From: Deltaproteobacteria bacterium
Lineage (GTDB): Bacteria > Desulfobacterota > Binatia > UBA9968
Reading direction: 5' to 3'
DNA: 64,000 bases
NCBI GenBank assembly: GCA_016180805.1
Contig: JACPAM010000109.1
Coordinates: forward strand, 734-64,733
In this document: positions 4,339 to 57,328 of the stretch, in pieces
Numbering within the stretch: position 1 is the first letter of the stretch
Layout of the letters: each line of letters opens with the position of its first letter
The notes under the pieces: generated by a model
The model's input: the letters and a program-made list of their open reading frames with translations, nothing else
What the model was told of the DNA's origin: nothing
The model's database searches: none
Made by a program: the position numbers and the translations under genes

Positions 4339-4349
4339 GGCCTTTCCTC

Positions 4350-13249: not shown

Positions 13250-13322
13250 GGCTTTCTCCTTTCCGATCCTTGCTATGCCCGCCGAAAAGTTATACGCGAT
13301 TAAGAGCGAGACGATCAAGATA

Positions 13323-17057: not shown

Positions 17058-18533
17058 TCAGACCGATGCCAATATCTTTTGAAATTTCGCTTTGAGCTTT
17101 GCGCGCAGCTCCGCACTGACTTCGACCACCCGCGGAAACTTACCCCGCAGTTTTCGGTCGTAGGGAATGCACGCGTCGACGAGAATCCGGTTATTGAAAT
17201 TTCCCGGCAGGAACATCGGATCCCGCCCCGAAGACCAGGCTTTCTGAATGATATCGATATCGGCGATGGGATCGAAGCGCGTGCACATTGCCCACAGCAC
17301 CTGCTCCAGGTCGGAGCAGTCGATATCCTCATCCACCACGACCGTCCATTTCCCATTGTAGGCCCCCGCCGAGCACGAAGAAGCCACATGCAGAACATTG
17401 CGCGAGTGCCCGGGATAGCGCTGGCGGATCTGAATCACGGTAAAGCGCGTGGCTGGGCCGGCCTCGTGGTTCCACACGCCGAGGATCTCCGGCAGACCAC
17501 AGGCATCGAGCGCTTTCCAAATTTCCGCAGCGCCCGCGATCCCCTTGAGCAGTCCCGTTTCGTCCACCGGCTTGTGCTGGGGCGCGCAGGTGAGGATCGG
17601 ATCGTCCCGGTAGAGAACGGTCTTAACGTCGATGTAGGGGCGGGGAACGACGTCATCAGAAATATAGCCCATCCACTCGCCGAACGGCCCCTCCGCCTTG
17701 ACGTTTCCCGGAACGACTTCGCCTTCGACGGCGATCTCGGCATCTGCCGGTATCGGAAAGCCAGTATAGGGCCCCTTGACGACCTCGATGGGCTCCCCCC
17801 GAATGCCGCCGGCAAACTCCAGCTCGGAGATCCCTTCGGGAAGCGGGCTTGCCGAAAGCATATACAGCAGCGGATCCTGGCCGCACACGACCACCACTTT
17901 CATGCTCTGGCCGCGCTCGAAGTATTTGTCGCGATGAATCCTTCCGTGCTTCCCCTCGGTGATCTGACAGCCGATAGTTTTTCCGTCGTAAACCTGGCAC
18001 CGGTAAGCTCCCAAGTTAAACCAGTCGGCGTCGGGGTCTTTGGTGATCACGCAGTCGGCCGTGCCGATAAAGCGTGACGTATCGAGCTCATGGTGGACGG
18101 GGACTGGAAACTTCAGCACGTCCACATCGTCGCCTTCCAAGACATGGTCGAGAACGGGTCCTTTGCTGACAAACCTGGGCTTCATGAGCTTCAGGCTTTG
18201 GATCCGCGCGTGGTAGGCCTTTACGATGTCGCACTTGCGCTCGTATTCGAGTGGTAAGCCCAGCGTCAGGGCGATCCGCTTCATCGTCGAAAATTGCCCG
18301 TAGAGAGTCCTGAACCCTTTCGGGTAGCCGGGCACCTCATCGAAAAGGATGGCCGGGGCCGTCCCCTTGCTCCGCTCGGTCAAGAGTTGCGTGATGCTAC
18401 CCATCTCCCGGTCCCAGTGAGCCCCGTTGATCCTCAGAAGCTCGCCCATCCGGTCTACCCGGTCGACCCAATCCCTGAGGCCACGATACCTCACCTGCCC
18501 TTCGACTTCGCGAACTTTCTCTGCGCGCGCCAT
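17058..18533 (-). CDS. UbiD-family (prFMN-dependent) decarboxylase, paralog 1
   Basis: 491 aa. UbiD-family profile similar to the two other paralogs at 32655 and 55463. Confidence 0.85.
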   Translation of the reverse strand: MARAEKVREVEGQVRYRGLRDWVDRVDRMGELLRINGAHWDREMGSITQLLTERSKGTAPAILFDEVPGYPKGFRTLYGQFSTMKRIALTLGLPLEYERKCDIVKAYHARIQSLKLMKPRFVSKGPVLDHVLEGDDVDVLKFPVPVHHELDTSRFIGTADCVITKDPDADWFNLGAYRCQVYDGKTIGCQITEGKHGRIHRDKYFERGQSMKVVVVCGQDPLLYMLSASPLPEGISELEFAGGIRGEPIEVVKGPYTGFPIPADAEIAVEGEVVPGNVKAEGPFGEWMGYISDDVVPRPYIDVKTVLYRDDPILTCAPQHKPVDETGLLKGIAGAAEIWKALDACGLPEILGVWNHEAGPATRFTVIQIRQRYPGHSRNVLHVASSCSAGAYNGKWTVVVDEDIDCSDLEQVLWAMCTRFDPIADIDIIQKAWSSGRDPMFLPGNFNNRILVDACIPYDRKLRGKFPRVVEVSAELRAKLKAKFQKILASV

Positions 18534-18732
18534 CCTCTCCTCCTTGTGTTAGTGGAACCACGCTTGAAGCGCTTCAAACCCACCATATGATTGCACGCGA
18601 CCTTCTGTCAAGGAATCCGGGCCAAATGGCCCATATGAACGGGCGGAGCCGCCCCTCCAGCCCGCGCGATGGTTCACCAGTCTCGGCGGCAAGCCTCTCC
18701 GTCCGAGGGCAATAACAAAATAAAAATCACGG

Positions 18733-18888
18733 CTCGCCCCCTCGACCGGCACACCTTCCCTTCGAAGCCCGAGGGGGACGAGGAGGAAGGCCGCGGACGT
18801 CCGATTACAGACGGTACGACTCATGGCACGAACGCATCGGCCGCGGCCTGATGGCTCGGCCCCCGAGGAGCTTTCGAGGGCATCATCG
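18733..18888 (+). repeat. structured intergenic repeat family, copy 1 (short variant)
   Basis: Shares CCCTCGAC..GAAGCCCGAGGGGGA, GAGGAGGAAGGCCGC, GGACGTCCGATTACAGACGGTACGACTCATGGCACGAAC..ATCGGCCGC and a CCCCCGAGGAGCTTTCGAGGG terminus with the other copies. Confidence 0.7.
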
Positions 18889-18908
18889 GACAAAGGGCCG
18901 AGAGTTTG

Positions 18909-23669: not shown

Positions 23670-23695
23670 CGAACATAGCTTTGCCTTCTGTCGCT

Positions 23696-23852
23696 AAGCT
23701 CCCTCGGGGAGCGCGCTCTCCGCTGCGGCCGATGGGTTGTCCTCGCTTCGCTCAGAATTTCAGATTGCAGATCTCAGATCTGAGATTTGAAATTTGCGAT
23801 TTGCAATCCCGAAGGGCTTGTCCGCAGCCTCGCTCGCGCTCCCCTCGGTCGC
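23696..23852 (-). repeat. structured intergenic repeat family, copy 2 (reverse orientation, with AT-rich palindromic internal module GATTGCAGATCTCAGATCTGAGATTTGAAATTTGCGATTTGCAATC)
   Basis: Contains the reverse complement of the GCGACCGAGGGGAGCGCGAGCGAGGCTGCGG and ..CATCGGCCGCAGC.GAGAGCGCGCTCCCCGAGGGAGC modules. Lies between the convergent liv and ssu-like operons. Confidence 0.65.
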
Positions 23853-23889
23853 AAAGAACGACCTCCTGCTGTCGGTCCTGCCGCCGTTT

Positions 23890-24894
23890 CTACCCGCCGA
23901 GCCGCTTCAGCGCCTCCTGGCGGTACGAGTCGTCGATGAACATCGACGCGGGATAAGCCTTTTCCAGGGCCTTGCGCTCGACCTCGAGGTTGATCACCGT
24001 CTCGATGCCTTTGATGCTGGGGGCGGCGTCATTGCGGATCGGCCGCAAATCTTCCATCACCTCTTTGTAGGCCAGCGCGGCATATTTCGGACTGATCTTG
24101 AAGTGGTTGAGCATCGCTTTGATGGTCGTTTCCTTGTTCTTGGGATCGGTCATGAATCTCATCGCCTTGATCATCGCCATCAGATAGCGCACGGTAACGT
24201 CCCGGTGGCTTTCCATCCACCTCGCATGTCCCGCAATCGTGGTGAATTGATAGTCCGGAAGATAGGTCGCGATGTTTGCGACGACATTCAAGCCTTCCTC
24301 TTTGGCCTGATAGGAGGTCGGGATAGTGACCATGGCACCGGAAACCGCGCCTTTTTTGACGGCAGCATAGCGCTGCGGAGTGCCCCCTACGGTCAACAGA
24401 TCGTAATCTCCAGGATACTTAAGCCCGTGCGCGGACATGATCTTCTGCAACAGGGCCGTGCTTCCCGAGGTCAGATTGATGACCCCGAAGGTGGTCCCTT
24501 TGAGATCCTCTACCTTCTTATATTTGGGGCCGGTAATGAGATCGTAGATCGCTTTGGTATAATTCCCCGCGACGATTTTGATCGGAGCATTCTTGATCAT
24601 GGCCGTGATCGAGCCCTGCGTGTTCGTGGGGTAAAGTATGTCGGTGGAGTTAGCGGATAAAGCCTGGATTGCTTTAGCGATCGAATTCGTCTGGAACTCA
24701 CGCAGCTCGAGATTCTGTTCTTTGAAATAGCCTTGATCTATGGCCACCCATATGGGCCAATGATCCCCTCCCGTGGATAGAATCCCGAGTTTGATCTCGT
24801 CTGCCGCGCGTAGCTGGCCGGGCAGGAAGATGACAAGCAAAGCCGCGGCAGTAAGCCCGATTACTGACTTCGGCACCACCGATCTTAAGTCCAT
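23890..24894 (-). CDS. ABC transporter substrate-binding protein, NMT1/SsuA/TauA family
   Basis: 334 aa with signal peptide. Last gene of the minus-strand ABC operon. Confidence 0.75.
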   Translation of the reverse strand: MDLRSVVPKSVIGLTAAALLVIFLPGQLRAADEIKLGILSTGGDHWPIWVAIDQGYFKEQNLELREFQTNSIAKAIQALSANSTDILYPTNTQGSITAMIKNAPIKIVAGNYTKAIYDLITGPKYKKVEDLKGTTFGVINLTSGSTALLQKIMSAHGLKYPGDYDLLTVGGTPQRYAAVKKGAVSGAMVTIPTSYQAKEEGLNVVANIATYLPDYQFTTIAGHARWMESHRDVTVRYLMAMIKAMRFMTDPKNKETTIKAMLNHFKISPKYAALAYKEVMEDLRPIRNDAAPSIKGIETVINLEVERKALEKAYPASMFIDDSYRQEALKRLGG

Positions 24895-24936
24895 GACCGT
24901 CCCTCCTTTTTACGGTGACATTTCGAGTCCAACCCC

Positions 24937-25719
24937 TTATACCCTATACTCGTACCACGGAGCAATCCTGCGCTCCGCGTATTTCAACAGCTCAAACGTC
25001 GTGTAACCTCCGATCGCCAACAGCACCACCCCGACGAATGCGTCGGCTGTTCGGAAGGCCTCCGAGGCCTCCGAGATCAGATAGCCGATTCCCGCCCTGG
25101 AGCCGAAAAACTCGCTCACGATCGCGCCGATGATGGCCCGCCCTACGCTCAAACGAAGGCCGGTCATGAGCAGCGGGAGCGCGCTCGGCACGGTCACCTT
25201 GAAAAATATTTGTCTCCCGGTCCCGCCGAAGGCGCGCACCGCTTCGACCAAGCGACGGTCGACCGTGGTGATACCCGTATACGTGTTGAACAACACGGGG
25301 AAGACCGCACCGATGAAAACGATGGCGATCTTCGAGGCGATGCCGACGCCAAGGGCGGTGATAAAAAGCGGCGCGAGGAGAATAATCGGAGCGTTATAAG
25401 AAATCGTTACCCAAGGATTCAGGATGTCTTTGGCGGTCCGGCTGAGCGCCATCAAAACGCCCAGGCCGATCCCGATCACGACGCCGACCAGATAACCCAG
25501 GATGAATTCGACAAACGTCGCATAGACATGGCGCGCGATCTCACCCCGCGCGAGCAGGTTCATGAAGGCTTCGGCGATCCGCGAAGGCCCGACGAGGATC
25601 AGCGGATTGTCGATGAAGAGGCCATCGACGATGTCCCACGCCACGATCCCCAGGATGACCGACGCGACGGCGTCAACCTTCTTCTCGTTCGCGCGATAGA
25701 TCTGCCTCAGCCATCCCAT
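24937..25719 (-). CDS. ABC transporter permease (SsuC/TauC-type)
   Basis: 260 aa, BPD_transp_1-type profile. Confidence 0.8.
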   Translation of the reverse strand: MGWLRQIYRANEKKVDAVASVILGIVAWDIVDGLFIDNPLILVGPSRIAEAFMNLLARGEIARHVYATFVEFILGYLVGVVIGIGLGVLMALSRTAKDILNPWVTISYNAPIILLAPLFITALGVGIASKIAIVFIGAVFPVLFNTYTGITTVDRRLVEAVRAFGGTGRQIFFKVTVPSALPLLMTGLRLSVGRAIIGAIVSEFFGSRAGIGYLISEASEAFRTADAFVGVVLLAIGGYTTFELLKYAERRIAPWYEYRV

Positions 25720-25721
25720 CG

Positions 25722-26573
25722 TTATTCCATCTCCATGCCGTGGACCTCACGCCGAACCTGATACGCGTACCAGGGAGAAATCCATCCCTGGACTTTGTCT
25801 AGCGCAATGAACGACAGAATGCCGAACACGACCAGAACCACGATCCCGACAAACACCGGGCCGGGCTGAAAGAGCTGAGAATAGAAGTACACCATATACC
25901 CAAGCCCGGCTTCCGCCCCAAACCACTCGGCCACCACCACGCCGATGACGGCGCGACCCACCGCGAGCCGGAGCCCCGCGATGATCGCGGGAGTCGCATC
26001 CGGAATCATAACCTTGAAGAACACCTGGAGCGGCGACCCGCCAAAGGCCCTCACCAGCTCGATGAGATTCTGCCTGACGGATTTGATGCCGGTGTACGTG
26101 TTTAGCAGGATCGGAAAGACGGCCCCGAGGAAGACAATCAGCGCGTTCGGGAAGATCCCCAGCCCAAACCAGACGATGATGATCGGGGCCAGGGCAACGC
26201 GGGGGGTGGCGTAAATGCAGGAGACCCATGGGTCGAGGCAGGTGTTGATCTTTTTTTGCGTCGCCATGAGAAACCCCACGGGGATCCCAACCACGACGGA
26301 CAATACAAATCCGTACGCGAATTCCAGGAGGCTGAAATAAGAGTGCCTGAAAAGCTCTCCGCTTCGATAAAGCTCGCCGAAGGTCTCGATCACCTGAAGC
26401 GGCGAAGCGAGGAAGTGCTGGATCGCATAAGCCTCAAAGTAAGGAGTCCGAGCCAAACCCTCGTAGGCAAGCTGCCAGATGCCGATCCCAACAACCACCG
26501 AGTATATGGCGATCATCCGGGATGAGCGCGCCCAAGCGGGGACACGAGGCTCTGCTTTCGCCACGGTCTTCAC
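25722..26573 (-). CDS. ABC transporter permease (SsuC/TauC-type), second permease
   Basis: The ORF extends to 26828, but a GTG at 26573 overlaps the ATPase TGA (GTGA) and gives a short positively charged N-terminus before TM1. The start is uncertain; the alternative is ATG 26516. Confidence 0.65.
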   Translation of the reverse strand: MKTVAKAEPRVPAWARSSRMIAIYSVVVGIGIWQLAYEGLARTPYFEAYAIQHFLASPLQVIETFGELYRSGELFRHSYFSLLEFAYGFVLSVVVGIPVGFLMATQKKINTCLDPWVSCIYATPRVALAPIIIVWFGLGIFPNALIVFLGAVFPILLNTYTGIKSVRQNLIELVRAFGGSPLQVFFKVMIPDATPAIIAGLRLAVGRAVIGVVVAEWFGAEAGLGYMVYFYSQLFQPGPVFVGIVVLVVFGILSFIALDKVQGWISPWYAYQVRREVHGMEME

Positions 26574-27388
26574 CGCATCCCTTCCTCGCGCTCTCTTCCC
26601 ATGGACTTGAGCACCTCGTCCTGGATGATGCTCCAGACGCGATCGGCGAGATCGAGAAATTCCTTGGTTCTTTTGACGCTCAGCGAACGGGGTCGAGGAA
26701 TGCTCACTTTGACGATCTCTCGGATGGTGGCGGGACGGGCCGAGAACACCACCACCCGGTCCGAGAGGAAAATCGCCTCTTCGATCTGGTGGGTGACGAA
26801 GATCACGGTCTTCCTCGTCTGGTTCCACATCTTTAAGAGCTCGGCTTGCATGATCTCCCGCGTTTGCGCGTCCAACGACGCGAAAGGCTCATCCATGAGG
26901 AGCACCTGCGGGTCAACGATCAGGGCGCGCGCCAGGTTGACGCGCTGCTGCATCCCTCCGGAAAGCTCGTGAGGATAGTGATTCTCAAAACCCGCGAGTC
27001 CCACGAGCGAAATATACCCTCCCGCTTTCCTCCTCGCCTCTCGCGTATCGACTCCCTGAAGCTCGAGGCCCAGAATGACGTTATCCATGACCGTGCGCCA
27101 AGGCAGAAGGGAAGAGTCCTGAAAGACGAACCCCTTGTCCGGGCCGGGCTTGATAACGGTCTTGCCGTCGAGAAGGATCTCTCCATCATCGTGGGAGATG
27201 AGCCCGTCGAGGATGCGCAAAAAAGTCGTCTTCCCGCACCCGCTCGGTCCCACCAGGGAGATGAACTCCGAAGGATGAACCTCCAGAGAAATATCTTCAA
27301 ACACCTGGACCGATTCCTCGGATCTCTGGCTGCGGAAAGCCTTGCGTAAATTGCGCACGACGAGTTTCGATGCAGGAGTTTCCATCAT
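26570..27388 (-). CDS. ABC transporter ATP-binding protein (SsuB/TauB/NitT family)
   Basis: Walker A GPSGCGKTT, signature LSGGMQQR. Confidence 0.85.
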   Translation of the reverse strand: MMETPASKLVVRNLRKAFRSQRSEESVQVFEDISLEVHPSEFISLVGPSGCGKTTFLRILDGLISHDDGEILLDGKTVIKPGPDKGFVFQDSSLLPWRTVMDNVILGLELQGVDTREARRKAGGYISLVGLAGFENHYPHELSGGMQQRVNLARALIVDPQVLLMDEPFASLDAQTREIMQAELLKMWNQTRKTVIFVTHQIEEAIFLSDRVVVFSARPATIREIVKVSIPRPRSLSVKRTKEFLDLADRVWSIIQDEVLKSMGREREEGMR

Positions 27389-27399
27389 ACCTCGGCCGC

Positions 27400-27560
27400 G
27401 TTCCCTCGAAAGCTCCTCGGGGGCCCGATCCGCCTCAGGCGGACGCGCACGTGCTTATCCGCGACCGAGGGGAGCGCGAGCGAGGCTGCGGACGTCCGAT
27501 TACAGACGGCACGACTCATGGCACGAACCCATCGGCCGCAGCCGAGAGCCCTTCCTATGC
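27400..27560 (+). repeat. structured intergenic repeat family, copy 3
   Basis: CCCTCGAAAGCTCCTCGGGGGCC..CGCCTCAGGCGG..GCGACCGAGGGGAGCGCGAGCGAGGCTGCGGACGTCCGATTACAGACGGCACGACTCATGGCACGAACCCATCGGCCGCAGCCGAGAG. Confidence 0.7.
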
Positions 27561-27607
27561 AAGGGCGAAAACTGTTTCACGAGCGTTCCTCTGCACCTTC
27601 CAGATGT

Positions 27608-28078
27608 CTAACGCCGGGCTCCCTCCAATGCCTCTACGATGGTATCCCCTTCCAGAGCCAGCTCGAGCGTGCCGAGAAGCTCGTCGTACTTCTCTCCGCC
27701 GATCATGGCTTTCATTGCGGGCTCGAAGACATGGTAGGTATCGAGGCCGAGCTCGACCCCGGTCAACGGACCCGAGTAGGTGGGATCACCGCGGGTGACC
27801 GTCTCGAATTGAATCAGGGAGCTATCGACGTTGGGCGCTCCCAGGAGTACAACGAGATTATTTCTGCCAAGACTTTCGGCGAGTTCTTTGATTCGACCTT
27901 GAACCTCAAGGTCCATGGCGCCGGCCGCGGTTCAGACAAAGCACTGCGTCGTGGAATAGACGATTTCCGCGCCGAGGTCTCCCACTGCCTCCTCGATCGT
28001 CTGCGCCGGGACTCCGTCCCTCTCTCCGAGGATGATGAGCTTTTTCCCCGCTAAACCCAGTTCCTTTGTGCCTGCCAT
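27608..28078 (-). CDS. grdA: glycine/sarcosine/betaine reductase complex selenoprotein A (GrdA), in-frame TGA = selenocysteine at 27932-27934
   Basis: Minus-strand translation from ATG 28078 (SD AAAGGACGGCGGAGG) gives MAGTKELGLAGKKLIILGERDGVPAQTIEEAVGDLGAEIVYSTTQCFV-U-TAAGAMDLEVQGRIKELAESLGRNNLVVLLGAPNVD...GDPTYSGPLTGVELGL... This matches GrdA, including the conserved CFVU-TAAGAMDLE redox motif. The ORF track reports only the post-TGA part (27608..27916). Confidence 0.85.
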
Positions 28079-28104
28079 AAGAACCTCCGCCGTCCTTTCT
28101 TTGC

Positions 28105-29550
28105 CTAAGGATGCCGCGCGAGCAAAACCGACATGCCATCGCTCAGTTGGGTCATCTGTCCGAGGAACAAACTCGCCCGGGCGAAAAGAAAACAGTTCCG
28201 AGCTTCCCCCTCGGTCAATTCCCGGTGCGCATGGGGAAGATAAGCCAGGGCCGAAGCGATATGCCCCTGGGTCGGGGCAAAACCAGGAACCCCTTTTCGC
28301 TTCATGAAGTCCTGCATCTCAGAGCGCGCCATCTTACCGCCGGAAACCAAGACTGCAGCCAGCATCTTGTAGTTGCGCTCCGGGATATCGCCGCCGTTGG
28401 CCGGCACGGTGATCTCGGGATTGTGCAGCTCGGTCACGAATCTGTCCACAGAGGCTGCGGTTAAATCCAACCGCTCCATCGGCTCCAGCACGATCGCCTT
28501 GAGCTGCTTATCCAACGCCGCCCCTGACCGCACCGGGTGACGCCCCACGCTGGCGAGGTTGATTACCGGGCTTTTGCCATCGTCCCGCCCGATCCAAACC
28601 GCGGCCGCAGCCAGCACGTCCTCGAGCACCGGCATGCCCTTCTCCAAATGGTAGAGAAATTTCATACCGAGTTTCGGGAGCGAGGCGCCGCCGACAACGA
28701 CGACGTTCTCAAAGACACCGCTGTGCACCAGCGCGGCTCCGGTCACGAGAGCCGGAATCGGGGCGGCGCAGAAGTTTTTGATGTCCATACCGGAGGCCAG
28801 CACGCAACCAGCAAACTCGGCCACGGCCTTGGCGAGATTGCCGCCGCCGCGCTGGTAGCGATCTCCGACCGCCTCCTCCGAACAGCTCAAGACGTAGTCG
28901 ACTTTCTGTTCCGAGAGCGCAGGATGGCGCATCAGGAGCTCGCGAACCGCCAAGGCCGCGGAAACCTTGACACAGAGATTCTCTAGCAAAACGTTCGCCG
29001 TAAGCGAGCCATCCTCATGATGCGCGTGTCTGATCCAGCCGATCGGTTGAGAATCGGTGCCGGTAAAGAGCGCGATCCCGTCCCCCTTGGCTATATCGGC
29101 GCGGAGCCGGTCGCGCGTGACGAGCGAGGGCGAGACTGTAGCCAAGGGCTGGAACAGCGGCACCGCCCGCAAACGCGGGCTGATATCCTGCCAAAAACCT
29201 TCAAATAAAGAAACGTGTTTGAAGACATCAGCGAGGGCCACAAGCCCGACGAAAGATCGCTCATCGATGAAATCGCCGAAGGCCCGACGATCGTTCGCGA
29301 GCGGTGATGGCCGCCCATACCACGGCCTTTCTACCTCGTAAAGGCTGGAGATGGGCGTCTGGCCAAGAAACACCCGGTTCGGCAAGTAAGCCTCGGCCTG
29401 TTCATGGGATTGGAGGCTCTTTTGAAGCTCATCAAGCCTCGAAGGGCGGTCTTGAATCTCCCGCCACGGCTTGGAGCCATAGCGGACGAGCCCGGGGGCG
29501 TGGATCAACACGCTGCTTGCGCCGTTAACAACGGGGGTGAAGCTCGCCAT
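28105..29550 (-). CDS. grdC: glycine/sarcosine/betaine reductase complex component C beta-subunit-like protein (GrdC)
   Basis: 481 aa. Blocks VLIHAPG, QRGGGNLAKAVAEFAG, KNFCAAP, NYKMLAAV, APTQGHI and GxxSLFLGQMT align with GrdC as recalled from memory. Confidence 0.65.
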   Translation of the reverse strand: MASFTPVVNGASSVLIHAPGLVRYGSKPWREIQDRPSRLDELQKSLQSHEQAEAYLPNRVFLGQTPISSLYEVERPWYGRPSPLANDRRAFGDFIDERSFVGLVALADVFKHVSLFEGFWQDISPRLRAVPLFQPLATVSPSLVTRDRLRADIAKGDGIALFTGTDSQPIGWIRHAHHEDGSLTANVLLENLCVKVSAALAVRELLMRHPALSEQKVDYVLSCSEEAVGDRYQRGGGNLAKAVAEFAGCVLASGMDIKNFCAAPIPALVTGAALVHSGVFENVVVVGGASLPKLGMKFLYHLEKGMPVLEDVLAAAAVWIGRDDGKSPVINLASVGRHPVRSGAALDKQLKAIVLEPMERLDLTAASVDRFVTELHNPEITVPANGGDIPERNYKMLAAVLVSGGKMARSEMQDFMKRKGVPGFAPTQGHIASALAYLPHAHRELTEGEARNCFLFARASLFLGQMTQLSDGMSVLLARHP

Positions 29551-29555
29551 CCTTC

Positions 29556-29700
29556 AAAACTCTCCGGCATTCCTTCGAAAGCTCCTCGGGGCCGAGCCGC
29601 CTCAGGCGACCGAGCAGAGGGCTTCGGGACTCCCTTCGCTCCACGGGACTGCGCGACGCGACCCCAGTTTGGTCTATTTCGTCATTTAGTCTTTGCATCG
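29556..29700 (+). repeat. structured intergenic repeat family, copy 4 (partial/divergent), inside the grd cluster
   Basis: Shares CTTCGAAAGCTCCTCGGGGCC..GCCGCCTCAGGCG with copy 3. Inserted between grdE and grdC. Confidence 0.55.
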
Positions 29701-29785
29701 ACCGAATGACCAAACGACCAGATAGACCAAAAACCACCCGGCGTAGTCCATCGTCCACGGGCTTCTTTCTCGTCCCTGCGCCGCC

Positions 29786-31090
29786 TCAGTAGGCTCTACA
29801 GGTCCACGACTGCCTTCCCCAATTGTCGACTCCGCCGATCACCATATCGCGCGCATCGAATGTCAGAGGGCCGCTCGCGGGCGTCAGGGGCGCCCCGGGA
29901 TAATTGAGCACCCGGATCTCCTCGTAGGGGCCGATGACTTTCTCCGGCGCCGGCAGCTCCACCCAACGATCGCGGCTTCCTGTGCTGACAACGGCCTGAG
30001 CCTCGGGAACGTAATAGAGCAGCGGGGAGTCGACCCCGTCTTTGCCACCATACTCGTAAGTCACGAGCACTGTTTTGATGCCGCGCTGCTCGCAGGCCCT
30101 AAGCGTGAGCATAACATCGACGAAGGCATTTCCCGAACCCAGCCAGGTCACCACGGCGCCGTCGGCGCCGAGGGTTTTTGCTAAATGCGCCGCGTTGTGC
30201 GCCGTGACCTCCTTCCCGTGATAGGTCTCGAAGCGGACCCGCTCGAGCGCGACGCCGGCAAAATTAAGCTCTTTTCCATGACGCCGATAAAGCTCCATCG
30301 CCAGGGCATGATTTTGCCAATCCCAGGTGTTCGGAAAGTAGCCGATCCCTCGCGTGGTATTGACCGTCACCGCGCCATCCAATAGCTCGTTGGGATGGGC
30401 GAAGGTCGCCAGGGAATCCCGGATCGACAAACCGTAGTAGGCAACACCCGAGTGGAACTGATGGGATTCGGTGAGACAACCCTGAATGAGCACGACCGTT
30501 GGCAGGTCCCGATTTTTTCTTGCCAGATCGTAGGTCTCAACCTTTTGGGGCTCCTTTCCGAGTGTCACCTCGGCCAGCCGCCGCGCCGCGTGAAGCTCGG
30601 CCTTCTGCACGGCCAGGTGAGCCTCCAGGTCGGGAAGACCCCCGGCAAGGCGCAGGATCAAGACCAAATTGACCAACGAGCCATAGCGCGAAATCTCCGC
30701 TCCCGCTCCCCACATATCGAGGACGGCGCTGCGCTGCACGCCGGTCCCGGCCCGGACTGCACCCTCGAATTCCGCCGTAGCCACCACGGCCATACCGGAA
30801 AGCCGGTGCGTTGTTCCCTCTCCGACTGGAGCCACCGGTCCAAGCACGCCGGGAAAAACCTGTCCGCTTCCTTGAGTCTTGACTCTCGGCTCAACAACGT
30901 CCCGGATCCCGGTGATTCTGACCTTCTCTCCCGGGTACGCGACTGCGACCTTCGCCTCCCGAATCCGCGGGTCTTTCAGCAGATCCCGGGCAAGCGTCTC
31001 TGCGTCTACCTCCAGAGTCCCGGACTGATACTGGAACTTATTTCCCAGAACGATCCTGCTTACCGGGAACTCTGCCAGGTCAAGTCGCAT
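29786..31090 (-). CDS. grdE: glycine/sarcosine/betaine reductase component B proprotein subunit (GrdE/GrdG/GrdI family)
   Basis: 434 aa. MRLDLAEF..., the block AYPGEKVRITGIRDVVEPRVKTQGSGQVFPGVL and ...LGADGAVVTWLGSGNAFVDVMLTLRACEQRGIKTVLVTYEYGGKDG match GrdE-family proteins as recalled from memory. Follows grdB by 15 nt. Confidence 0.65.
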   Translation of the reverse strand: MRLDLAEFPVSRIVLGNKFQYQSGTLEVDAETLARDLLKDPRIREAKVAVAYPGEKVRITGIRDVVEPRVKTQGSGQVFPGVLGPVAPVGEGTTHRLSGMAVVATAEFEGAVRAGTGVQRSAVLDMWGAGAEISRYGSLVNLVLILRLAGGLPDLEAHLAVQKAELHAARRLAEVTLGKEPQKVETYDLARKNRDLPTVVLIQGCLTESHQFHSGVAYYGLSIRDSLATFAHPNELLDGAVTVNTTRGIGYFPNTWDWQNHALAMELYRRHGKELNFAGVALERVRFETYHGKEVTAHNAAHLAKTLGADGAVVTWLGSGNAFVDVMLTLRACEQRGIKTVLVTYEYGGKDGVDSPLLYYVPEAQAVVSTGSRDRWVELPAPEKVIGPYEEIRVLNYPGAPLTPASGPLTFDARDMVIGGVDNWGRQSWTCRAY

Positions 31091-31105
31091 CCACCTTTTC
31101 TCGAA

Positions 31106-32437
31106 TCACACGGTCGCGGAAATGTTCGGATAGAATAACGTCGGCTGTTTAACCTCCGCATGGATGGCCTTGAGCGCGGTCTCCACGATCTCGCGTCTCA
31201 GCCGTGCATCGACCTCGGACGGCAGACTGGGATCACCGCACGGATGCGGAATGCTCACGGCTTTGACGATCCGGCTCGCTCCGACCTGCTCCGCGATCGG
31301 ATACATAGCGCTGATAATCGCCACCGGCAATCCCGCTCGATCAATTTCCTTGCTAATCACAGCACCGCTGCGACTGCACGTCCCTCAGGTCGCTACCAAT
31401 AGGACCCCATCGATCTGCTCCTTCTTGAGGTCGGCGGCGATCTCCTGCCCGATGCGCTTCATGACCGAGGGCGATCCCTGGTTCCCTGGAACGACGTAGT
31501 AGCTGTGGTAGAGGCGGAATCTTCCATCGGATTCCGACGCGCGCAACGCGTCGAGAGGCAATCCATAATGGGGGTTCTGATTCATGAACGCGACGTTGTA
31601 ACCGCCGTGAACTGCCTCCCACTTTCCCGGCTCCAAGACCTTCAATTCCGAAATATTGTACTTCTGCCAAAACGTGTTGCGGTAGGTCTTGAAACGGTCC
31701 GGATTGCCCCACGGCACCACCCCGCTAGTGGTAATCACGGCGATGGTCGCCTGCCGCTCCGGCGAAAGCGGCGGCGCCGGCACCGCGCGATCCCAGATTT
31801 GCACCGGAACTTCGGTCACGAAAGGCTCATTGCGGAGCCGTTTGAGAAGCATCTCGACGGCGCGCTCCACGCCGGGCCGGTCGGTCCGCTCGAGCCGCCG
31901 GATGCCCCGAGGGATATAGCCTTCTTCTCTCGCCGGTCCCAACTCCTCGCCACTCCCCAACCTGCAGGCGAATCCTGCCATCGCCATCAAAGCCTCGTTC
32001 ATCCCTGCAGCCGTCTCTCTAGTGGGCAGCAAATAGACGTTGAGATCGTGGTACCCGCGATAGGCGTCCACCGCGGGATTTTCCTCGTGCATCGCAGTCA
32101 CGCATGGAATTCCCAAACTCTCCGCCACGCCGTGACAAACCTCCACACAGCCGACCCCGTAGCGTCCAGAGTTGAAGGCGGGACCAGCAACGACCACCTG
32201 GGGCTTGCGGGAGCCGATTTCTTTGAGAATGGCGGCCTTGGCCTCTTCAGGGTGTTCGTGAAAGTAGTTGTCGCCGAAATAGATCGTCGCGACGACCTTG
32301 CCCTTATCACCGAGCTGTGCCTGTAAGCCACGCGCCGCTCCCGTCGCGCCCTCGGCTGTCCCCACGGGCACTCCCGCCTTATCCTCGCCCCCCAGACCGG
32401 CGAAGAATTGATTGATGACGTGGACAACAGTGACCAT
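31106..32437 (-). CDS. grdB: glycine/sarcosine/betaine reductase selenoprotein B (GrdB/GrdF/GrdH family), in-frame TGA = selenocysteine at 31385-31387
   Basis: ATG 32437 with an AAGGAGG SD. MVTVVHVINQFFAGLGGEDKA...AGPAFNSGRYG... runs to ...DGVLLVAT-TGA(U)-GTCSRSGAVISKEIDRAGLPVAIISAMYPIAEQVGASRIVKAVSIPHPCGDPSL... This reproduces the conserved ...T-U-GTC..GA motif and C-terminal tail of GrdB. The ORF track splits it into 31385..32437 and 31106..31360. Confidence 0.85.
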
Positions 32438-32654: not shown

Positions 32655-34070
32655 ATGGCCAAGGATATGCGAACTTTTATCGATCAGGTAGTCCGAGAAC
32701 GTCCGGGGGAAATTTTGGTCGTCAATGAAGAGGTAGACCCAAAGTTTGGGATAACGGGAATAGCTTCTAAGCTGGCTAGCCGGAATCGTTTCCCCGCGGT
32801 CTTGTGCCGCAAAGTCCGAGGGTCGCAGTTGCCCGTCATTATTAATCTCACTGCCAGCTATGAGCGGTTGGCTTTGGCTCTCGGGACGACAATGGCGAGC
32901 ATGGTTCCAGATTACGCCAACCGTCCTTCAGCCAAGATCCAACCGAAGATCGTCGAAAGATCCAAGGCGCCGGTGAAGGAGATCATTCTCAAGGGAAAGG
33001 AAGCCAGGATGTCAGTCTTGCCGGTTCCCACTCACAACGAGCTTGACGCCGGCCCCTATATCACCGGAGGTACTTTGATCTGCAAAGATCCCGATTCCGG
33101 TGCGTTGAATACCGGCATGTACCGGATACAGGTGCAAAAAGAGCAGCAGTTGGGAATTTGGATGTGGGACACCCATCATGGTGCTCATATCCGGCGGAGG
33201 TATGAAGAGCTGGGAAGGGAGATGGAGGTGGCCATTGCTATTGGCCACCATCCCGCTTACATCATGGCCGCTGTTTCTACGCTCCCGGGGATAGGCGGAG
33301 AATTGGAAGAGGCCGGAGCCCTTCTCGGCGAGCCTCTTGAAGTTGTGCCTGCTGAGTCTGTCGATCTGCCTGTCCCGGCCAGGGCAGAGATCGTCATTGA
33401 AGGCAAGTTGCCTCCGGGAGAACGAGCCTTCGAAGGGCCGTTTGCTGAATGGCCGGGGACCTACGTGGCGGAAGGAGATAAGCCTTTTATTAGAGTCACT
33501 GCTATCACGATGCGTAAGGATGCCATCTACTATGACGTTTTCAGTTCCAATCGAGAGCACACGGTTTTGGGCAGCCTTCCACGAATGGGGGTTATTTACC
33601 GCACTGTCAAACAGTATGCGCCAGGAGTGAGGAACGTAAATATTCCCAGCCATGGACGCATGTACTGCTACATCTCGATAAAGAAAGAATCGGAAATGGA
33701 CGTAAAAAGGGCCGCCATGGCAGCCCTCAATGTCGAGCCCTTCAATCTGAAAACAGTCGTGGTCGTAGATGATGACATCGATGTCTTCAATGATGCCGAG
33801 GTCCTTTGGGCTATTGGAACCCGCTGCCATATGGAGAGAGATCTGACGCTGGTTCCTCGATTGGCTGGTCCTGGAGGGCTGAATCCCGTGGGCTATGAGT
33901 TTCATCCTGACGGCAGCAAGACTCCCGTTATGATCTCAGCCCTTATTGTGGATGCCACGAAGCCGGCACCGCCGACCCCTTACCCGCCGAGAGCCAGAGT
34001 GCCGCAAGAAGTTCTTGATCGTATCGATCTCGGTAAGCTGCTTAAGGAATTCAAGGGATTTGAGTGTTAA
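32655..34070 (+). CDS. UbiD-family (prFMN-dependent) decarboxylase, paralog 2
   Basis: 471 aa. Divergent from grdB with a 217-bp intergenic region. Confidence 0.85.
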   Translation: MAKDMRTFIDQVVRERPGEILVVNEEVDPKFGITGIASKLASRNRFPAVLCRKVRGSQLPVIINLTASYERLALALGTTMASMVPDYANRPSAKIQPKIVERSKAPVKEIILKGKEARMSVLPVPTHNELDAGPYITGGTLICKDPDSGALNTGMYRIQVQKEQQLGIWMWDTHHGAHIRRRYEELGREMEVAIAIGHHPAYIMAAVSTLPGIGGELEEAGALLGEPLEVVPAESVDLPVPARAEIVIEGKLPPGERAFEGPFAEWPGTYVAEGDKPFIRVTAITMRKDAIYYDVFSSNREHTVLGSLPRMGVIYRTVKQYAPGVRNVNIPSHGRMYCYISIKKESEMDVKRAAMAALNVEPFNLKTVVVVDDDIDVFNDAEVLWAIGTRCHMERDLTLVPRLAGPGGLNPVGYEFHPDGSKTPVMISALIVDATKPAPPTPYPPRARVPQEVLDRIDLGKLLKEFKGFEC

Positions 34071-39971: not shown

Positions 39972-40997
39972 CTATTTGAGAATCTCCTTTAAGTTCCCCA
40001 CAATCACGGGCTTCAACTCAAATAGACCGGCGACGGTTTTCGCAAGCTCTTCTGCCGGCACGGGATCGATCTCCAGATTGGATTTCTTGGCGTCAGCCAG
40101 AAATTCCGCGTCGCGCATCGTATCCATGAACGCCTTTCGCACCGCAGCTACCCTATCCTTCGGCGTGCCAGGAGGCAGGGTGAAAGGACGGATGAGCGCG
40201 CTCATGTCGTGAATTCCCGCCTGAAGCAACTGCCGCGCCTGATCGGTCTTAGCGAAATTGATCGCGAGCGGGACTCCGGCCAAGTCGCGGCGCGGCTTCG
40301 GCATCATCTGCAGCACAACCACCACCGCGCCCGATTCCACCGCCTTGGTCCACACGGCCTTGACCGAAAACCAGTTCCACCCGCATGACCCTGCCACCTC
40401 CCCGCTTTCGGCCGCAAGCCGAACATCGGCAGTCCCTTTGTAGCCCGAAACGAGCTGGATCGGAAGATCGAGGGCAGCCTTCAGGATTTTTGGATGGTCA
40501 TTGGTGGGATCTCCCGGACCGGTACCACCCAATTTGACCGGCGTCTTGGCAGCAATTAGTTTCTCCATGCTCGTGACCCCGCTCGCTTTGGTCAGAACAC
40601 ATACGGGGCTGTCCTTAACCGGCGCGCCGACGTACTCAAACTTACGGGCATCAAATTCAACGCCCTGCCTTCCCAGAAGCTGCTGTAAAAAAAGCCCCCC
40701 GATAAAATGGCCGATGGTAAGGCCGTCGGGCTGAGCCACCTTATAAAGATGGTTGGCGGAAATAAGGCTTCCGGCTCCCGGCATGTTTTCTACAATGATT
40801 GTCGGGTTACCCGGTATGTGCCTCCCGAAATGACGGGCGATAGCACGTGTGTACGTATCGAAGCCCCCTCCGGCCGAGAAGCCCACGACGATACGAACCG
40901 TTTTGCCCTTGTAAAAATCATGCGTGCTCGCTCGCGCTTCGTCTGAGGCGATGGCAAGCCCAATGAGTAAGGCTACAAAGCTAAAAACACTTTTCAT
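39972..40997 (-). CDS. tripartite tricarboxylate transporter substrate-binding protein (Bug/TctC family), orphan
   Basis: Signal peptide and the IIVENMPGAGS motif typical of the Bug family. No tctA/tctB adjacent. Confidence 0.7.
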   Translation of the reverse strand: MKSVFSFVALLIGLAIASDEARASTHDFYKGKTVRIVVGFSAGGGFDTYTRAIARHFGRHIPGNPTIIVENMPGAGSLISANHLYKVAQPDGLTIGHFIGGLFLQQLLGRQGVEFDARKFEYVGAPVKDSPVCVLTKASGVTSMEKLIAAKTPVKLGGTGPGDPTNDHPKILKAALDLPIQLVSGYKGTADVRLAAESGEVAGSCGWNWFSVKAVWTKAVESGAVVVVLQMMPKPRRDLAGVPLAINFAKTDQARQLLQAGIHDMSALIRPFTLPPGTPKDRVAAVRKAFMDTMRDAEFLADAKKSNLEIDPVPAEELAKTVAGLFELKPVIVGNLKEILK

Positions 40998-41169
40998 ATT
41001 ACCTTCCCTCATTAATTGCGGACATCAGGGTTAACGAGCGCCTTCTATCATAGATCATTCTGAAAGGCCACACGTGCTATTTTTCCTGAACACTCAAACG
41101 CCACTGCGCGATAGTTAGGGGACCTCGCCCAGCTTCGGACTTGACTAAACGCCCGTGGGTCGGACCACG

Positions 41170-41973
41170 CTATGTCTCAGTGTTTTCAGCGTTTTCCTTC
41201 CAAAAGATAGTATTCTCGGGCGTTAGCACCTCACTTTCGCCCCGAAAATCACCCGCATAAGCCTCTCTTTCTTCCCGCAATACGTACGTTCCGCCGATCT
41301 CCGCGACTTTGCGATGTATGGCTTTGATCCCAAGCTCGTTCTTAACGTTGTCAATAAAAGCCGAACTGCCAACGGCGATAGCCTCTGACCAGCGATCGTC
41401 TCGCACCGCCATCCCGCGCATTAGCGCTTCCTCAACCCATTGGCGGTGTGCTTGCTGAAAATCCGCTACTTCCCCAAAGCCACATAAGGCGCTTAGGCCC
41501 CGAAGATCGATAATCCCATAGCGCTCGGGTGGCTTTTGAATCTCGCGGTAGCCACTCTGTGCCCATTCGCTTGGATGCTGAACCACACGTGCCCGTACCA
41601 TGTTCAAGTCAATATAGACAAGACAGCGATGCAGGTGCTCGTCGGCCTCGATAGCGGTGGCATGGTAACGATCCTCCCAGAACGCTCCCTGCCGCCCTTT
41701 GCGCTGGTTGTATTCTTGCGCGGTGCGTCCGGCAATTAGCTGCATGCTCTGCGGAATCACCTCTCGGCCCGTATCCCTTACCAGGAGATGCACGTGGTTG
41801 GACGTCACCATATAGTTAAGCACCGAGAGGCCGAATCGCTTTTTGGCCTTAAAGACCCAATGCAAGTAACGGCGTCGATCCCGCGCAAACTTCAAGAGGA
41901 ATGTCTTGTGGTGGCAGCGGTGAGTGATGTGCCAAATGTAGCCGGGCAGAAAATGGCGGCTGGCGCGGGGCAT
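41170..41973 (-). mobile_element. REP-associated tyrosine transposase (RAYT, IS200-like TnpA_REP)
   Basis: 267 aa. HuH motif NHVHLLV, RKGRQGAFWEDRYHA..., YIDLNMVRARVV..PSEWAQSGY with a catalytic Tyr. Flanked by the inverted 10-mers GGGTCGGACC (near 41146) and GGTCCGACCC (near 42083). Confidence 0.8.
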
Positions 41974-42176: not shown

Positions 42177-44429
42177 CTAAGAGGATGGCTCGTGGAGCAG
42201 CGCGTGGACGCGCTCGCTGGTCATTGGCAGGCGAACAACGCGGACGCCGATAGCGGCGCTCACCGCGTTAGCGACGGCTGCGCCCACAGGATCCAGAGTT
42301 CCCTCCGCGAAGCCTTTGGCACCGAAGGGACCTGTCGGCTCAGGGTCTTCGACGATCTCGACCGAGATCTCCTCGGGCACGTCGAAGCTGGTGGGGACGA
42401 GATAGGTGGCAAACGAAGGGTTGCTTACTCCTCCGTTAACTTTGACCTCCTCGGTGAGGGCGTATCCGATGCCCATCATCACGCCTCCCCTTACCTGCCC
42501 CTCCACAGTTATCGGGTTGATCAGGCGCCCAACATCGCACACGGCGGCGTAGCGTAACACTTGAACCTGCCCCGTTCCTTCGTCCACATCGACTAATGCG
42601 GCATGGGTGCTAAAGCTGTAAGTTCCCGCAGCACTCCCCTGCCCTGTTTCCGGATCCAGAGGTTCGGTCTCGGGCATAAAGTCCGCGACCGCGGTAATCT
42701 CATGATAAACATGTCTGTTGAAAAGATCGGCTAGAGTGATCCCGCGCTCGCGATACGCCACCACACCGTCCACCAACCTGAGATCTTCCGGGTCACACCC
42801 CAAATCCCGTCCCGCCAGCTCCAGCACTTGCCGCCGTACTTTTTCAGCGGCAAGCCGCACGGCGTTTCCTGAAAGGTAGGTAACCCGGCTCGCCGAAGTC
42901 GACTCGCAGTCGGGTGCAACGGCGGTGTCGTTGGTCAGAAGCTGAATCCGATCGACATCAACTCCCAGTACTTCAGCCGCCACCTGCGCCATCATAATGT
43001 CCGAGCCTTGGCCGAGATCGACGTGCCCGCAGGCTATCGTCACGCTGCCATCCGGACTGAGGGTTACAATAGCCGTGCTGCGGGACGATTTGCGGATGCT
43101 GCCGATGCTTCGGGTGCTGCATCCCACGCCGATCCCGCGCCGCTTTCCTTTCGGAGCCTTGGCCAGCAGTGGCTTGAAGGAGTCCGCGGCACGTTTCGTC
43201 CGCTGGAGCATCTCCTTGAACGGGACGCTCGCATGCAAAACCTGGCCTGTGGCAGTCGGCAACGTGGTATCCAGGGCGTTGCGCATCCTGACTTCGATCG
43301 GGTCGAGCCCGACACGGGTTGCCAATTCATCCATAAGAGATTCGAGGGCGAAAGCAATCTGAGGTATCCCGTAGCCGCGCATCGCGCCGCACGGGACCGT
43401 GTGGGTGAAGACAGCGTAGCCGTCAGCTTTCACACTGGGAATGTAATAGGGGCCGGTGACGTGGGTAACGGACTTCGTAATCACCGCTCGCCCCTCGTAG
43501 AGATACGCCCCGGTATCGCCTACCAGGGTCGCTTCGATGGCCAAGAGCTTGCCCTCTTTCGTGGCCCCGAGCTTGAGGTCCATCACGTAGGGGTGACGCT
43601 TGTGGCTGGCGATGATGGACTCGTCCCGCTGGTATTTGACCTTTGCGGGCCGCCCCGTCTTCCAGGCGATCAACGCGGCGCAACACTGAGCATGAGGAGT
43701 GAGCTTGCCGCCGAAGCCGCCGCCGGTAGTCATCTGGTGAACCCGAACACGGCTTTGGGGCAGCCCGAGCATGCGGGAGACTTCTTCCCGATCACGGTGA
43801 GGGTATTGCGTGGAAGACCAGATGGTTATCCCTCCTTGAGGATCGACGGCGGCCACGGCCCCCTCTGGCTCCATGTAGGCGTGCTCGATGCGCTGCGTGA
43901 AAAAACGCCTTTCGAGCACGACGGCCGCGTCCCGCAGCGCCGCTTGCACGTCGCCGCGACGAGCCTTGAAATGAGTCCCGATGTTTCCGGCAGGATGCAC
44001 CGAGGGCGCTCCCGGTTCCATCGCCTTCAGCGGATCCATCACCGCGGGTAGAACCTCGTAGTTGACCACAACCTGCGCCATCGCCTCCTCCGCAGCCCGC
44101 TCCGTCTCCGCCGCAACCACGGCAACCGCGTCACCAGCGAAGCGGACCACATCCCCGCACAGGATGGGTTGATCTTTGATGATGGCTCCGATCGAGTTGG
44201 CACCTGGGATATCTTGGGCGGTGAGAACCGCGAGCACCCCCGGATGCTTGAGCGCCCGCGAGGCATCAATGGAACGAACCCGCGCGTGGGGATGGGGGCT
44301 TCGAAGCACCTTACCGTAAATCATCCCCGGAAGCGCAAGGTCGTCGACGTATCGAGCCTCGCCGGCCACCTTTCCCGGCGCATCCTTCCGCAAGATAGGC
44401 TTGCCGATGATTTTCCCGACGTGATTCAC
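42177..44429 (-). CDS. xanthine dehydrogenase family molybdopterin-binding subunit (CoxL/HcrA-like)
   Basis: 750 aa. Aldehyde oxidase/xanthine dehydrogenase a/b hammerhead and MoCo-binding profile. Last gene of the FAD-FeS-Mo operon. Confidence 0.85.
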   Translation of the reverse strand: MNHVGKIIGKPILRKDAPGKVAGEARYVDDLALPGMIYGKVLRSPHPHARVRSIDASRALKHPGVLAVLTAQDIPGANSIGAIIKDQPILCGDVVRFAGDAVAVVAAETERAAEEAMAQVVVNYEVLPAVMDPLKAMEPGAPSVHPAGNIGTHFKARRGDVQAALRDAAVVLERRFFTQRIEHAYMEPEGAVAAVDPQGGITIWSSTQYPHRDREEVSRMLGLPQSRVRVHQMTTGGGFGGKLTPHAQCCAALIAWKTGRPAKVKYQRDESIIASHKRHPYVMDLKLGATKEGKLLAIEATLVGDTGAYLYEGRAVITKSVTHVTGPYYIPSVKADGYAVFTHTVPCGAMRGYGIPQIAFALESLMDELATRVGLDPIEVRMRNALDTTLPTATGQVLHASVPFKEMLQRTKRAADSFKPLLAKAPKGKRRGIGVGCSTRSIGSIRKSSRSTAIVTLSPDGSVTIACGHVDLGQGSDIMMAQVAAEVLGVDVDRIQLLTNDTAVAPDCESTSASRVTYLSGNAVRLAAEKVRRQVLELAGRDLGCDPEDLRLVDGVVAYRERGITLADLFNRHVYHEITAVADFMPETEPLDPETGQGSAAGTYSFSTHAALVDVDEGTGQVQVLRYAAVCDVGRLINPITVEGQVRGGVMMGIGYALTEEVKVNGGVSNPSFATYLVPTSFDVPEEISVEIVEDPEPTGPFGAKGFAEGTLDPVGAAVANAVSAAIGVRVVRLPMTSERVHALLHEPSS

Positions 44430-44432
44430 AAC

Positions 44433-47778: not shown

Positions 47779-47789
47779 CTCAGCGGTCC

Positions 47790-57318: not shown

Positions 57319-57328
57319 ATAACGCGGG

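Follow-up and report, generated by a model that had tools for sequence, protein, structure and literature searches.

The reductases of glycine, sarcosine and betaine are textbook selenoenzymes, known from strict anaerobes that ferment amino acids, and the Grd mechanism is thought to require a protein C built as a GrdC-GrdD pair. We describe here a grd-like cluster of four minus-strand genes at positions 27608-32437 of a 64-kb window, by which we mean the whole stretch of DNA analysed (contig JACPAM010000109.1 of the "Deltaproteobacteria bacterium" assembly GCA_016180805.1, lineage Binatia). The G+C content is about 59%, and the cluster consists of a selenocysteine (Sec)-containing grdB-like gene (PF07355), a grdE-like gene (PF09338), a 235-bp gap, grdC (PF19364/PF08545) and a Sec-containing grdA (PF04723). 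Open reading frames (ORFs) together with Pfam and NCBIfam assignments bear out the gene calls, coordinates and grdB-grdE-grdC-grdA order given in an earlier interpretation made from the letters alone (hereafter the sequence-only reading). Our preferred explanation, held at a probability of roughly 60%, is that the cluster is a complete, functional and lineage-typical Grd-family variant of an uncultured Binatia-like bacterium from a soil lineage, with a protein B predicted from its sequence to be pyruvoyl-free and to act on some substrate of the X-CH2-COO- type.

Canonical glycine reductase, as in Acetoanaerobium noterae (locus L005), C. difficile and Eubacterium acidaminophilum, draws on the same GrdB, GrdE, GrdC and GrdA families and shares with the window Sec in the same immediate motifs (CFVU in protein A, U-GTC in protein B). 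The proteins are 31-42% identical, however, and the window differs by the absence of Cys242 of GrdE, the loss of the second cysteine of the UxxCxxC motif of GrdB, the lack of grdD and thioredoxin (trx) genes, another gene order and a GrdC of a separate clade; because Cys242 is absent, protein B of the window is probably without a pyruvoyl group. The canonical order grdX-trxB-trxA-grdE-grdA-grdB-grdC-grdD was recovered in A. noterae from our own ORF calls and in dozens of metagenome loci, which confirms the departure from clostridial order that the sequence-only reading had pointed out. Its term "non-canonical" is right in that the order differs, but the locus is no oddity, as B-E-C-A is conserved in relatives, being shared by five loci from Binatia or "Deltaproteobacteria" metagenome-assembled genomes (MAGs; L001, L006, L035, L036 and L038). 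All four ORFs are intact, and comparison with their orthologues in L006 and L038 gives ratios of nonsynonymous to synonymous substitution rates (dN/dS) of 0.08-0.18 across the four genes (0.09-0.13 for the grdB-like and 0.08-0.11 for the grdE-like gene). The cluster is an intact, selenium-dependent, lineage-typical variant of the glycine/betaine reductase system, and probably a working enzyme because both of its losses, those of the GrdE cysteine and of an adjacent grdD, are typical of the lineage.

Betaine reductase (GrdH/GrdI), like the window, combines a Sec-containing GrdB-family subunit with a PF09338 subunit without processing cysteine, and uses selenoprotein A and GrdC. The GrdE-like protein agrees with GrdI in lacking the cysteine, as expected of an unprocessed partner, although at 35% identity to GrdI this is resemblance only. 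Identity between the two systems is just 36-37%, the GrdH cut-off is not reached, and the motif is UxxCxxC there and UxxCxxS here; the betaine reductase locus of the Enterococcus gilvus megaplasmid pCR1A (L004) reads trxB-trx-grdA-grdC-grdD-grdI-grdH-BCCT, in contrast to B-E-C-A without adjacent grdD, trx or BCCT genes. In the fluoroacetate reductase of Cloacibacillus porcorum MFA1 (FarB/FarE), too, the E subunit is not processed and the cysteine pattern after Sec is altered, and this enzyme provides the precedent of a GrdB/GrdE-like pair that cleaves non-C-N bonds without a pyruvoyl group (PMC10838667). The far operon includes genes for a major facilitator superfamily (MFS) antiporter and an Fe-S oxidoreductase, its proteins A and C being supplied from elsewhere, whereas grdC and grdA lie within the cluster here, and the window GrdB-like protein, unlike FarB, retains the first cysteine of the motif.

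Protein B: a GrdB-like selenoprotein and a cysteine-less GrdE-like subunit

The grdB-like selenoprotein (31106..32437, minus strand; 443 aa including Sec351; PF07355 at 7e-111) passes the TIGR01918 model with 439 bits, which places it in the general subfamily only, and it reaches none of the NCBIfam equivalogs: 403 bits for glycine (TIGR01917, cut-off 602), 419 for sarcosine GrdF (cut-off 800) and 380 for betaine GrdH (NF040795, cut-off 775). The grdE-like subunit (29786..31090, minus strand; 434 aa; PF09338 at 6e-94) likewise reaches neither GrdG (220 bits against 780) nor FarE (NF053623; 127 against 675). As the two proteins fail all curated substrate-specific cut-offs tested, the label "glycine/betaine reductase" once attached to the cluster cannot be kept. 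Sarcosine reductase was rejected on the GrdF and GrdG scores and D-proline reductase on those of PrdA and PrdB (29 bits against 700 and 78 against 300, respectively). Fluoroacetate reductase proper was rejected on the FarE score and on the lack of far-operon neighbours, there being no MFS antiporter or Fe-S oxidoreductase of that kind beside the cluster in the window. Source annotations of the same tight protein clusters vary among "glycine reductase", "sarcosine reductase", "betaine reductase" and "hypothetical protein", none of them backed by curated cut-offs; such genes are now named glycine, sarcosine or betaine reductase more or less randomly.

In C. difficile GrdE a cysteine-derived pyruvoyl group forms the N-terminus of peptide 242-266 (PMC9908766), and in A. 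noterae GrdE the cysteine of SGN-C-VSAC is residue 242. A gap-free alignment between the anchors HPNExxDGA and T(Y/W)xxQN sets Cys242 of A. noterae opposite Thr246 in VNT-T246-RGIGYFP (codon at 30353..30355, minus strand), and the second conserved cysteine of canonical GrdE opposite Gly250. No cysteine stands at the cleavage position when the protein is compared with A. noterae GrdE and E. gilvus GrdI, the latter carrying Phe at this place. The sequence-only reading was therefore correct about the missing cysteine and one residue off about its replacement, which it had put at Thr245. Processing cysteines are likewise missing from GrdI and FarE, neither of which is a proprotein (PMC10838667).

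Loss of the cysteine is common in the GrdE-like family and not a local accident. A protein search with the GrdE-like subunit returned ~1200 homologues, the top 120 at 66-96% identity and many of them named as Binatia or "Deltaproteobacteria bacterium" MAGs. Among 121 full-length representatives of 50%-identity clusters nearest the window protein, a GNC motif is found in only five, and most have Tyr or Phe; the GNC-bearing group scores best against the GrdG model. In a neighbour-joining (NJ) tree the window protein falls within a 45-member branch without cysteine at the cleavage column, the wider cysteine-less branch having Tyr, Phe, Ile or Arg. Of the 121 sequences that make up the close family (66% identity or more), 114 have Thr246 and seven carry Ala, Val, Ile or Met instead, while Arg247 is found in 118; all eight copies adjacent to GrdB have Thr246, and an orphan paralogue has Ile. 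Searching the PDB by sequence gave no solved relative of the GrdE-like protein, so the cleavage loop has no structural anchor.

Judging by these sequences, the GrdE-like subunit is most likely not a proprotein and would stay uncleaved and without a pyruvoyl group. We favour this because the cysteine is absent, GrdI and FarE give the precedent, the protein sits in a cysteine-less branch, and Thr246 is replaced in seven homologues and in the orphan paralogue. It seems to us very unlikely that Thr246 instead takes over from Cys242 as the self-cleavage nucleophile, in a proprotein that would yield an N-terminal 2-oxobutyryl carbonyl cofactor. The constancy of Thr246 next to GrdB and in the close family, together with that of Arg247, would suit such a role, and a C242T mutant of GrdE is reportedly cleaved slowly in vitro. 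The substitutions by Ala, Val, Ile or Met, the Ile of the orphan, the loss of the second conserved cysteine as well and the diverse residues of the wider branch argue otherwise, and a 2-oxobutyryl cofactor derived from Thr is not known to us from any natural enzyme.

The GrdB-like partner departs from described systems at its Sec motif. Its in-frame UGA (31385..31387, minus strand) is read as Sec within LLVAT-U-GTCSRSG, the frame running on for 92 conserved residues, and it is kept in every homologous locus examined. The motif VAT-U-GTCSRSG is UxxCxxS instead of the canonical UxxCxxC and is identical in all five Binatia-type sequences; outside the Binatia-type and Actinomycetota clades, every GrdB or GrdH recovered has TST-U-GTCTRCG (UxxCxxC), GrdH included. 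The Actinomycetota MAGs (L007-L009) constitute a second, independent clade with the order E-B-C-A, in which, as in the window, a cysteine-less GrdE (SGQFGHPGLK) goes with an altered GrdB motif, here U-GTGTRCG (UxxGxxC), in which the first and not the second cysteine is lost.

Sec insertion signals are present at both UGA codons in the form of conserved GGU-loop hairpins downstream. That of grdB, a hairpin resembling a selenocysteine insertion sequence (SECIS; 31348..31380, minus strand), lies 8-40 nt 3' of the UGA and has a GGU apical loop; RNAalifold on seven Binatia-type loci gives 14 pairs, of which the apical eight are invariant, synonymous sites included. In grdA the in-frame UGA (27932-27934, minus strand) is followed ~20 nt 3' by a SECIS-like hairpin (GACCUUGA-GGU-UCAAGGUC; 27893..27915, minus strand) whose 8-bp stem is invariant in five loci despite synonymous freedom. 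Rfam and tRNA scans of the window gave no riboswitch, no annotated SECIS family and no tRNA-Sec.

Features of both subunits bear on whether the cluster encodes a betaine reductase of the GrdH/GrdI type, or another reductase of quaternary or "onium" carboxymethyl compounds that would release an amine for a methylotroph-like lineage. The GrdE-like subunit lacks the processing cysteine as GrdI does and is slightly nearer to E. gilvus GrdI (35% identity, 204 bits) than to A. noterae GrdE (31%, 193 bits), and methylamine-using methylotrophy is described for Binatota (PMC8262859). We nevertheless regard this assignment as unlikely, since the GrdH score of 380 bits is not only far from its cut-off of 775 but lower than those for GrdF and GrdB, GrdH retains UxxCxxC, no BCCT/OpuD or OpuA-type betaine transporter is found in the window, and the associated binding proteins are SsuA/TauA-like.

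Protein C, selenoprotein A and the missing grdD

In contrast to protein B, the other two components are recognized by curated models: grdC (protein C beta-like; 28105..29550, minus strand; 481 aa) scores 503 bits against an NF040746 cut-off of 450, and selenoprotein A (27608..28078, minus strand; 156 aa, with Sec49 in the CxxU motif CFV-U-TAAGAMD) scores 190 bits against an NF040748 cut-off of 130. No grdD accompanies them. Pfam scans of the long ORFs of the window (picked by a greedy non-overlap rule that took most ORFs of at least 100 aa and a few shorter ones) gave zero PlsX-like/GrdD, thioredoxin or thioredoxin-reductase domains; tblastn against the six-frame 64-kb window with Firmicute GrdD, TrxA, TrxB and GrdX, taken from the E. 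gilvus and A. noterae loci, gave no match at E<=1e-5; and no ORF with a CGPC motif occurs in the window. That grdD is not adjacent, and that the window holds no grdD, trxA or trxB, had already been stated on the strength of the sequence and stands, with grdX likewise not found. An NCBI MAG protein encoded on a contig of 65,644 bp matches the window GrdC at 100% identity, so nearly the entire source contig was inspected, only ~1.6 kb of it lying outside the window; exact window proteins were found only there and on short Logan contigs.

A scan of species-representative genomes with the window GrdC returned 29 loci: one Binatia-like (79% identity), three from Actinomycetota (order E-B-C-A) and 25 from Desulfobulbales, other Thermodesulfobacteriota, Alphaproteobacteria and a few other or unclassified MAGs. 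Except in L032, with a truncated grdC and no recognizable grdA, grdA comes immediately after grdC (28 loci), and no GrdD match occurs within the flanks (up to 10 kb) of the 29 loci. A metagenome scan with a GrdD alignment, which gave Firmicute-like and other grdC-grdD loci and serves as a control and not as a test for a Binatia GrdD, found grdC directly upstream of grdD in 80/80 loci with room upstream.

In an NJ tree of 102 GrdC proteins the 33 grdA-linked, grdD-less sequences, the window included, form a single clade, with all 69 grdD-linked ones outside it, the two sets having been retrieved with different queries. Columns fixed at >=90% in each type separate them at window positions 27 (K in the grdD-less clade, T in the grdD-linked one), 174 (R, K), 232 (Y, N), 258 (K, R), 297 (K, N) and 323 (D, N). 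Position 193 is Cys in 28/33 grdD-less and 0/69 grdD-linked proteins, and all proteins of either type have C223 and C261. The window GrdC lies inside the grdD-less clade, has K27, R174, C193, Y232, K258 and K297, and is followed immediately by grdA without a grdD. A grdC-grdA arrangement without grdD marks this whole clade, which extends over Binatia, Actinomycetota, Desulfobulbales and Alphaproteobacteria, four or more phyla; no description of grdD-less grd clusters was found in the searchable literature. In a closed 5.68-Mb genome (ENA assembly; L124 and L125, 10001-12015) a grdC-grdA pair, its GrdC 58% identical, stands alone, with no grdB, grdE or grdD within 10 kb and with toxin-antitoxin and defence-like genes nearby.

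The grdD-less modules of the Desulfobulbales, Alphaproteobacteria and Actinomycetota MAGs (L007-L034) thus agree with the window in GrdC clade, signature residues and grdC-grdA adjacency. Those of Desulfobulbales and Alphaproteobacteria, at 40-50% identity, differ from it in pairing with a fully canonical, cysteine-containing GrdE (SGNCVSACDK) and a UxxCxxC GrdB, and often have tdh-kbl-like neighbours; they are probably true glycine reductases. At L016 (7497-9741), L021, L026, L028, L033 and L034, from Desulfobulbales, Alphaproteobacteria and Rhodospirillales MAGs, genes for a threonine dehydrogenase-like (short-chain) protein and a glycine C-acetyltransferase-like protein (Kbl/BioF family, 322 bits, under the cut-off of 460) lie beside grdC-grdA or grdE-grdB. 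These neighbours point to threonine-to-glycine feeding of a grdD-less, otherwise canonical glycine reductase.

One could then suppose that the window, too, encodes an ordinary glycine reductase, its grdD and trx genes lying elsewhere in the genome and its gene order having no functional meaning. GrdA and GrdC do pass their NCBIfam cut-offs, thioredoxin systems are housekeeping genes, and the same module occurs with a cysteine-containing GrdE and glycine-supplying tdh-kbl-like genes in Desulfobulbales and Alphaproteobacteria. This is nonetheless quite improbable in our estimation, given the GrdB-like score of 403 bits against 602, the loss of both GrdE processing cysteines, the UxxCxxS motif and the 31% identity to true GrdE; moreover, the accepted mechanism requires Schiff-base activation of glycine (Andreesen 2004, cited in PMC10838667).

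Spacer, repeats and neighbouring genes

The grdE-grdC spacer (29551..29785, 235 bp) had been taken to hold a ~145-bp copy of an intergenic repeat. What we find is a ~66-nt end-module fragment (29551-29616) matching the end of the repeat copy at 27382-27449 (blastn, 79% over 68 nt, E 8e-11) and, separately, a 64-nt imperfect palindrome (29668-29731; self-inverted match of 75% over 64 nt); an nhmmer profile of six clear repeat copies has no match in the spacer at E<=1. The corresponding spacer measures 6-64 bp in relatives (L036, L001, L038). No terminator is predicted in the window spacer, its fold has a z-score of -1.5, and neither the promoter/terminator scan nor the fold was better than in shuffled sequences. 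There is no sign of the repeat fragment interrupting the operon.

A decaying remnant, with grdD lost, a repeat inserted and no functional enzyme expressed, would leave traces of the kind seen in this spacer, and a related locus (L002 11371-11667 / L003 4787-5083) does keep, behind its grdE, just a 99-aa N-terminal grdC remnant, 72% identical to the GrdC of the window; grdC and grdA are lost there. Four intact ORFs under a dN/dS of 0.08-0.18, conserved SECIS-like hairpins, the same architecture in many genomes and a spacer without predicted terminator make decay the least credible of the explanations considered.

Between grdA and the ATP-binding cassette (ABC) transporter genes the intergenic repeat is present as a full copy (27376..27613, minus strand; nhmmer E 6e-50), and five others are at 18729-18897, 23695-23895, 47783-47942, 52554-52759 and 57055-57324. 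The six copies occur in both orientations and are 160-270 bp long, GC-rich and intergenic, with internal palindromes; none was seen in the related loci retrieved. A 267-aa IS200-like Y1 transposase (41170-41973, minus strand; PF01797, E 1e-10) could be a partner of these repeats of the kind associated with repetitive extragenic palindromes (RAYT-like).

Downstream of grdA lies a NitT/TauT-type ABC transporter (23890..27388, minus strand) with an ATPase (26570-27388), two permeases (25722-26828 and 24937-25719; a permease start is probably later than listed) and an NMT1/SsuA-like binding protein (23890-24894), all assigned at Pfam/NCBIfam family level. A link between transporter and reductase is possible. 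In most relatives a secreted SsuA/TauA-like binding protein with signal peptide is encoded directly upstream of grdB (62-72% mutual identity; for instance at 7628-8620 in L001); it was not found in the window, nor in L038, where the upstream flank is visible. The window transporter and the binding proteins of relatives resemble sulfonate/taurine systems, a likeness that holds at family level only. As a pointer to the substrate the transporter was rejected: its subunits are far below all equivalog cut-offs, its linkage is unconserved, and the binding protein of relatives is missing.

Relatives also vary in their complement of GrdE-like genes. In L001 (2229-13494) and L035 (678-13483) two extra GrdE-like paralogues, without their own grdB, precede the cluster, each placed behind a periplasmic binding protein of its own (NMT1-type or PhnS-like), which suggests that specificity is set by interchangeable GrdE-like modules. 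In L035 a reverse-transcriptase gene (RVT_1) is inserted in the array; L002 and L037 have binding protein, grdB and grdE only.

Across the window, five NMT1/SsuA-like solute-binding proteins (6575-7708, 10238-11416, 23890-24894, 51526-52491 and 57329-58282), most without adjacent permease genes, and a TctC-like receptor (39972-41012) are encoded, the orphan binding proteins amounting to a large expansion. Three UbiD-family decarboxylase paralogues of 30-34% mutual identity are at 17058-18533 (minus strand), 32655-34070 (plus strand) and 55463-56911 (minus strand), one of them divergent from grdB; UbiD genes are also near the grd clusters of L002, L035 and L036. Molybdenum hydroxylase genes at 42177-45805 and 52826-55168 encode two large subunits (xanthine/CO-dehydrogenase family) and one subunit binding flavin adenine dinucleotide. 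Further genes encode hydantoinase/oxoprolinase A and B (2197-6509), a trehalose-6-phosphate synthase/phosphatase fusion (13113-15542) and a B12-binding radical SAM protein (49761-51476).

Proposed chemistry and meaning

By analogy, the first half-reaction most likely works like that of betaine or fluoroacetate reductase. Protein B would consist of the Sec-containing GrdB-like subunit (UxxCxxS) and a GrdE-like subunit left uncleaved, as are GrdI and FarE, and the GrdB selenolate would attack the X-CH2-COO- substrate directly, X being a good leaving group, with no Schiff-base activation. The carboxymethyl group would then be handed to Sec49 of GrdA, and GrdC would turn it into an enzyme-bound acetyl thioester, leaving GrdA oxidised and to be re-reduced by a thioredoxin system encoded elsewhere. 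Because this GrdC clade pairs with grdA and never with grdD, the acetyl group may be released without GrdD (to phosphate, coenzyme A (CoA) or water) or via a GrdD encoded elsewhere.

Several points weigh against the reading of the cluster as a functional variant with a pyruvoyl-free protein B and its own substrate. Thr is in principle capable of an N-to-O acyl shift, and Thr246 is conserved as stated (114/121 in the close family, 8/8 next to grdB). The absence of grdD covers 65.6 kb of the source genome, and the 80 sampled grdD loci are those most similar to Firmicute GrdD. As the grdD-less module also occurs with canonical GrdE in Desulfobulbales and Alphaproteobacteria, it is uninformative on substrate; no gene of the neighbourhood identifies the substrate either, and the linkage to the ABC transporter is not conserved in relatives, a related ATPase being nearby only in L002 (46% identity).

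Going one step further, we may tentatively speculate, while thinking it rather doubtful, that protein C of the whole clade in Binatia, Actinomycetota, Desulfobulbales and Alphaproteobacteria is GrdD-free, acetyl being released without GrdD phosphorolysis, for instance to CoA, and that in Binatia it serves pyruvoyl-free GrdE-like specificity subunits for new carboxymethyl substrates. The several GrdE-like paralogues of some genomes would then each adjoin their own periplasmic binding protein.

The Binatota lineage is described as one of aerobic methylotrophs, solely on the basis of genomes, with methylamine among the compounds used (PMC8262859). That reference study mentions neither glycine, betaine, sarcosine nor selenoproteins, nor a selenium-dependent reductive metabolism, and our literature searches found nothing linking Binatota with glycine, sarcosine or betaine reductases.

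The cluster is a conserved, selected Grd variant and not an aberrant glycine/betaine reductase operon. Three marks set it apart: a protein B likely to be pyruvoyl-free, its own selenoprotein A and a GrdC whose clade is nowhere linked to grdD. It shares with its relatives a conserved architecture, widespread beyond the Firmicutes, in which grdC never has grdD for a neighbour. Should GrdD really be lacking, the energy-conserving last step, the formation of acetyl phosphate, must differ or be replaced. With GrdI and FarE as the first two, the Binatia-type protein B would be a third kind of B component that lacks the cysteine and is probably pyruvoyl-free, and would therefore imply a further substrate class for Grd chemistry in soils.

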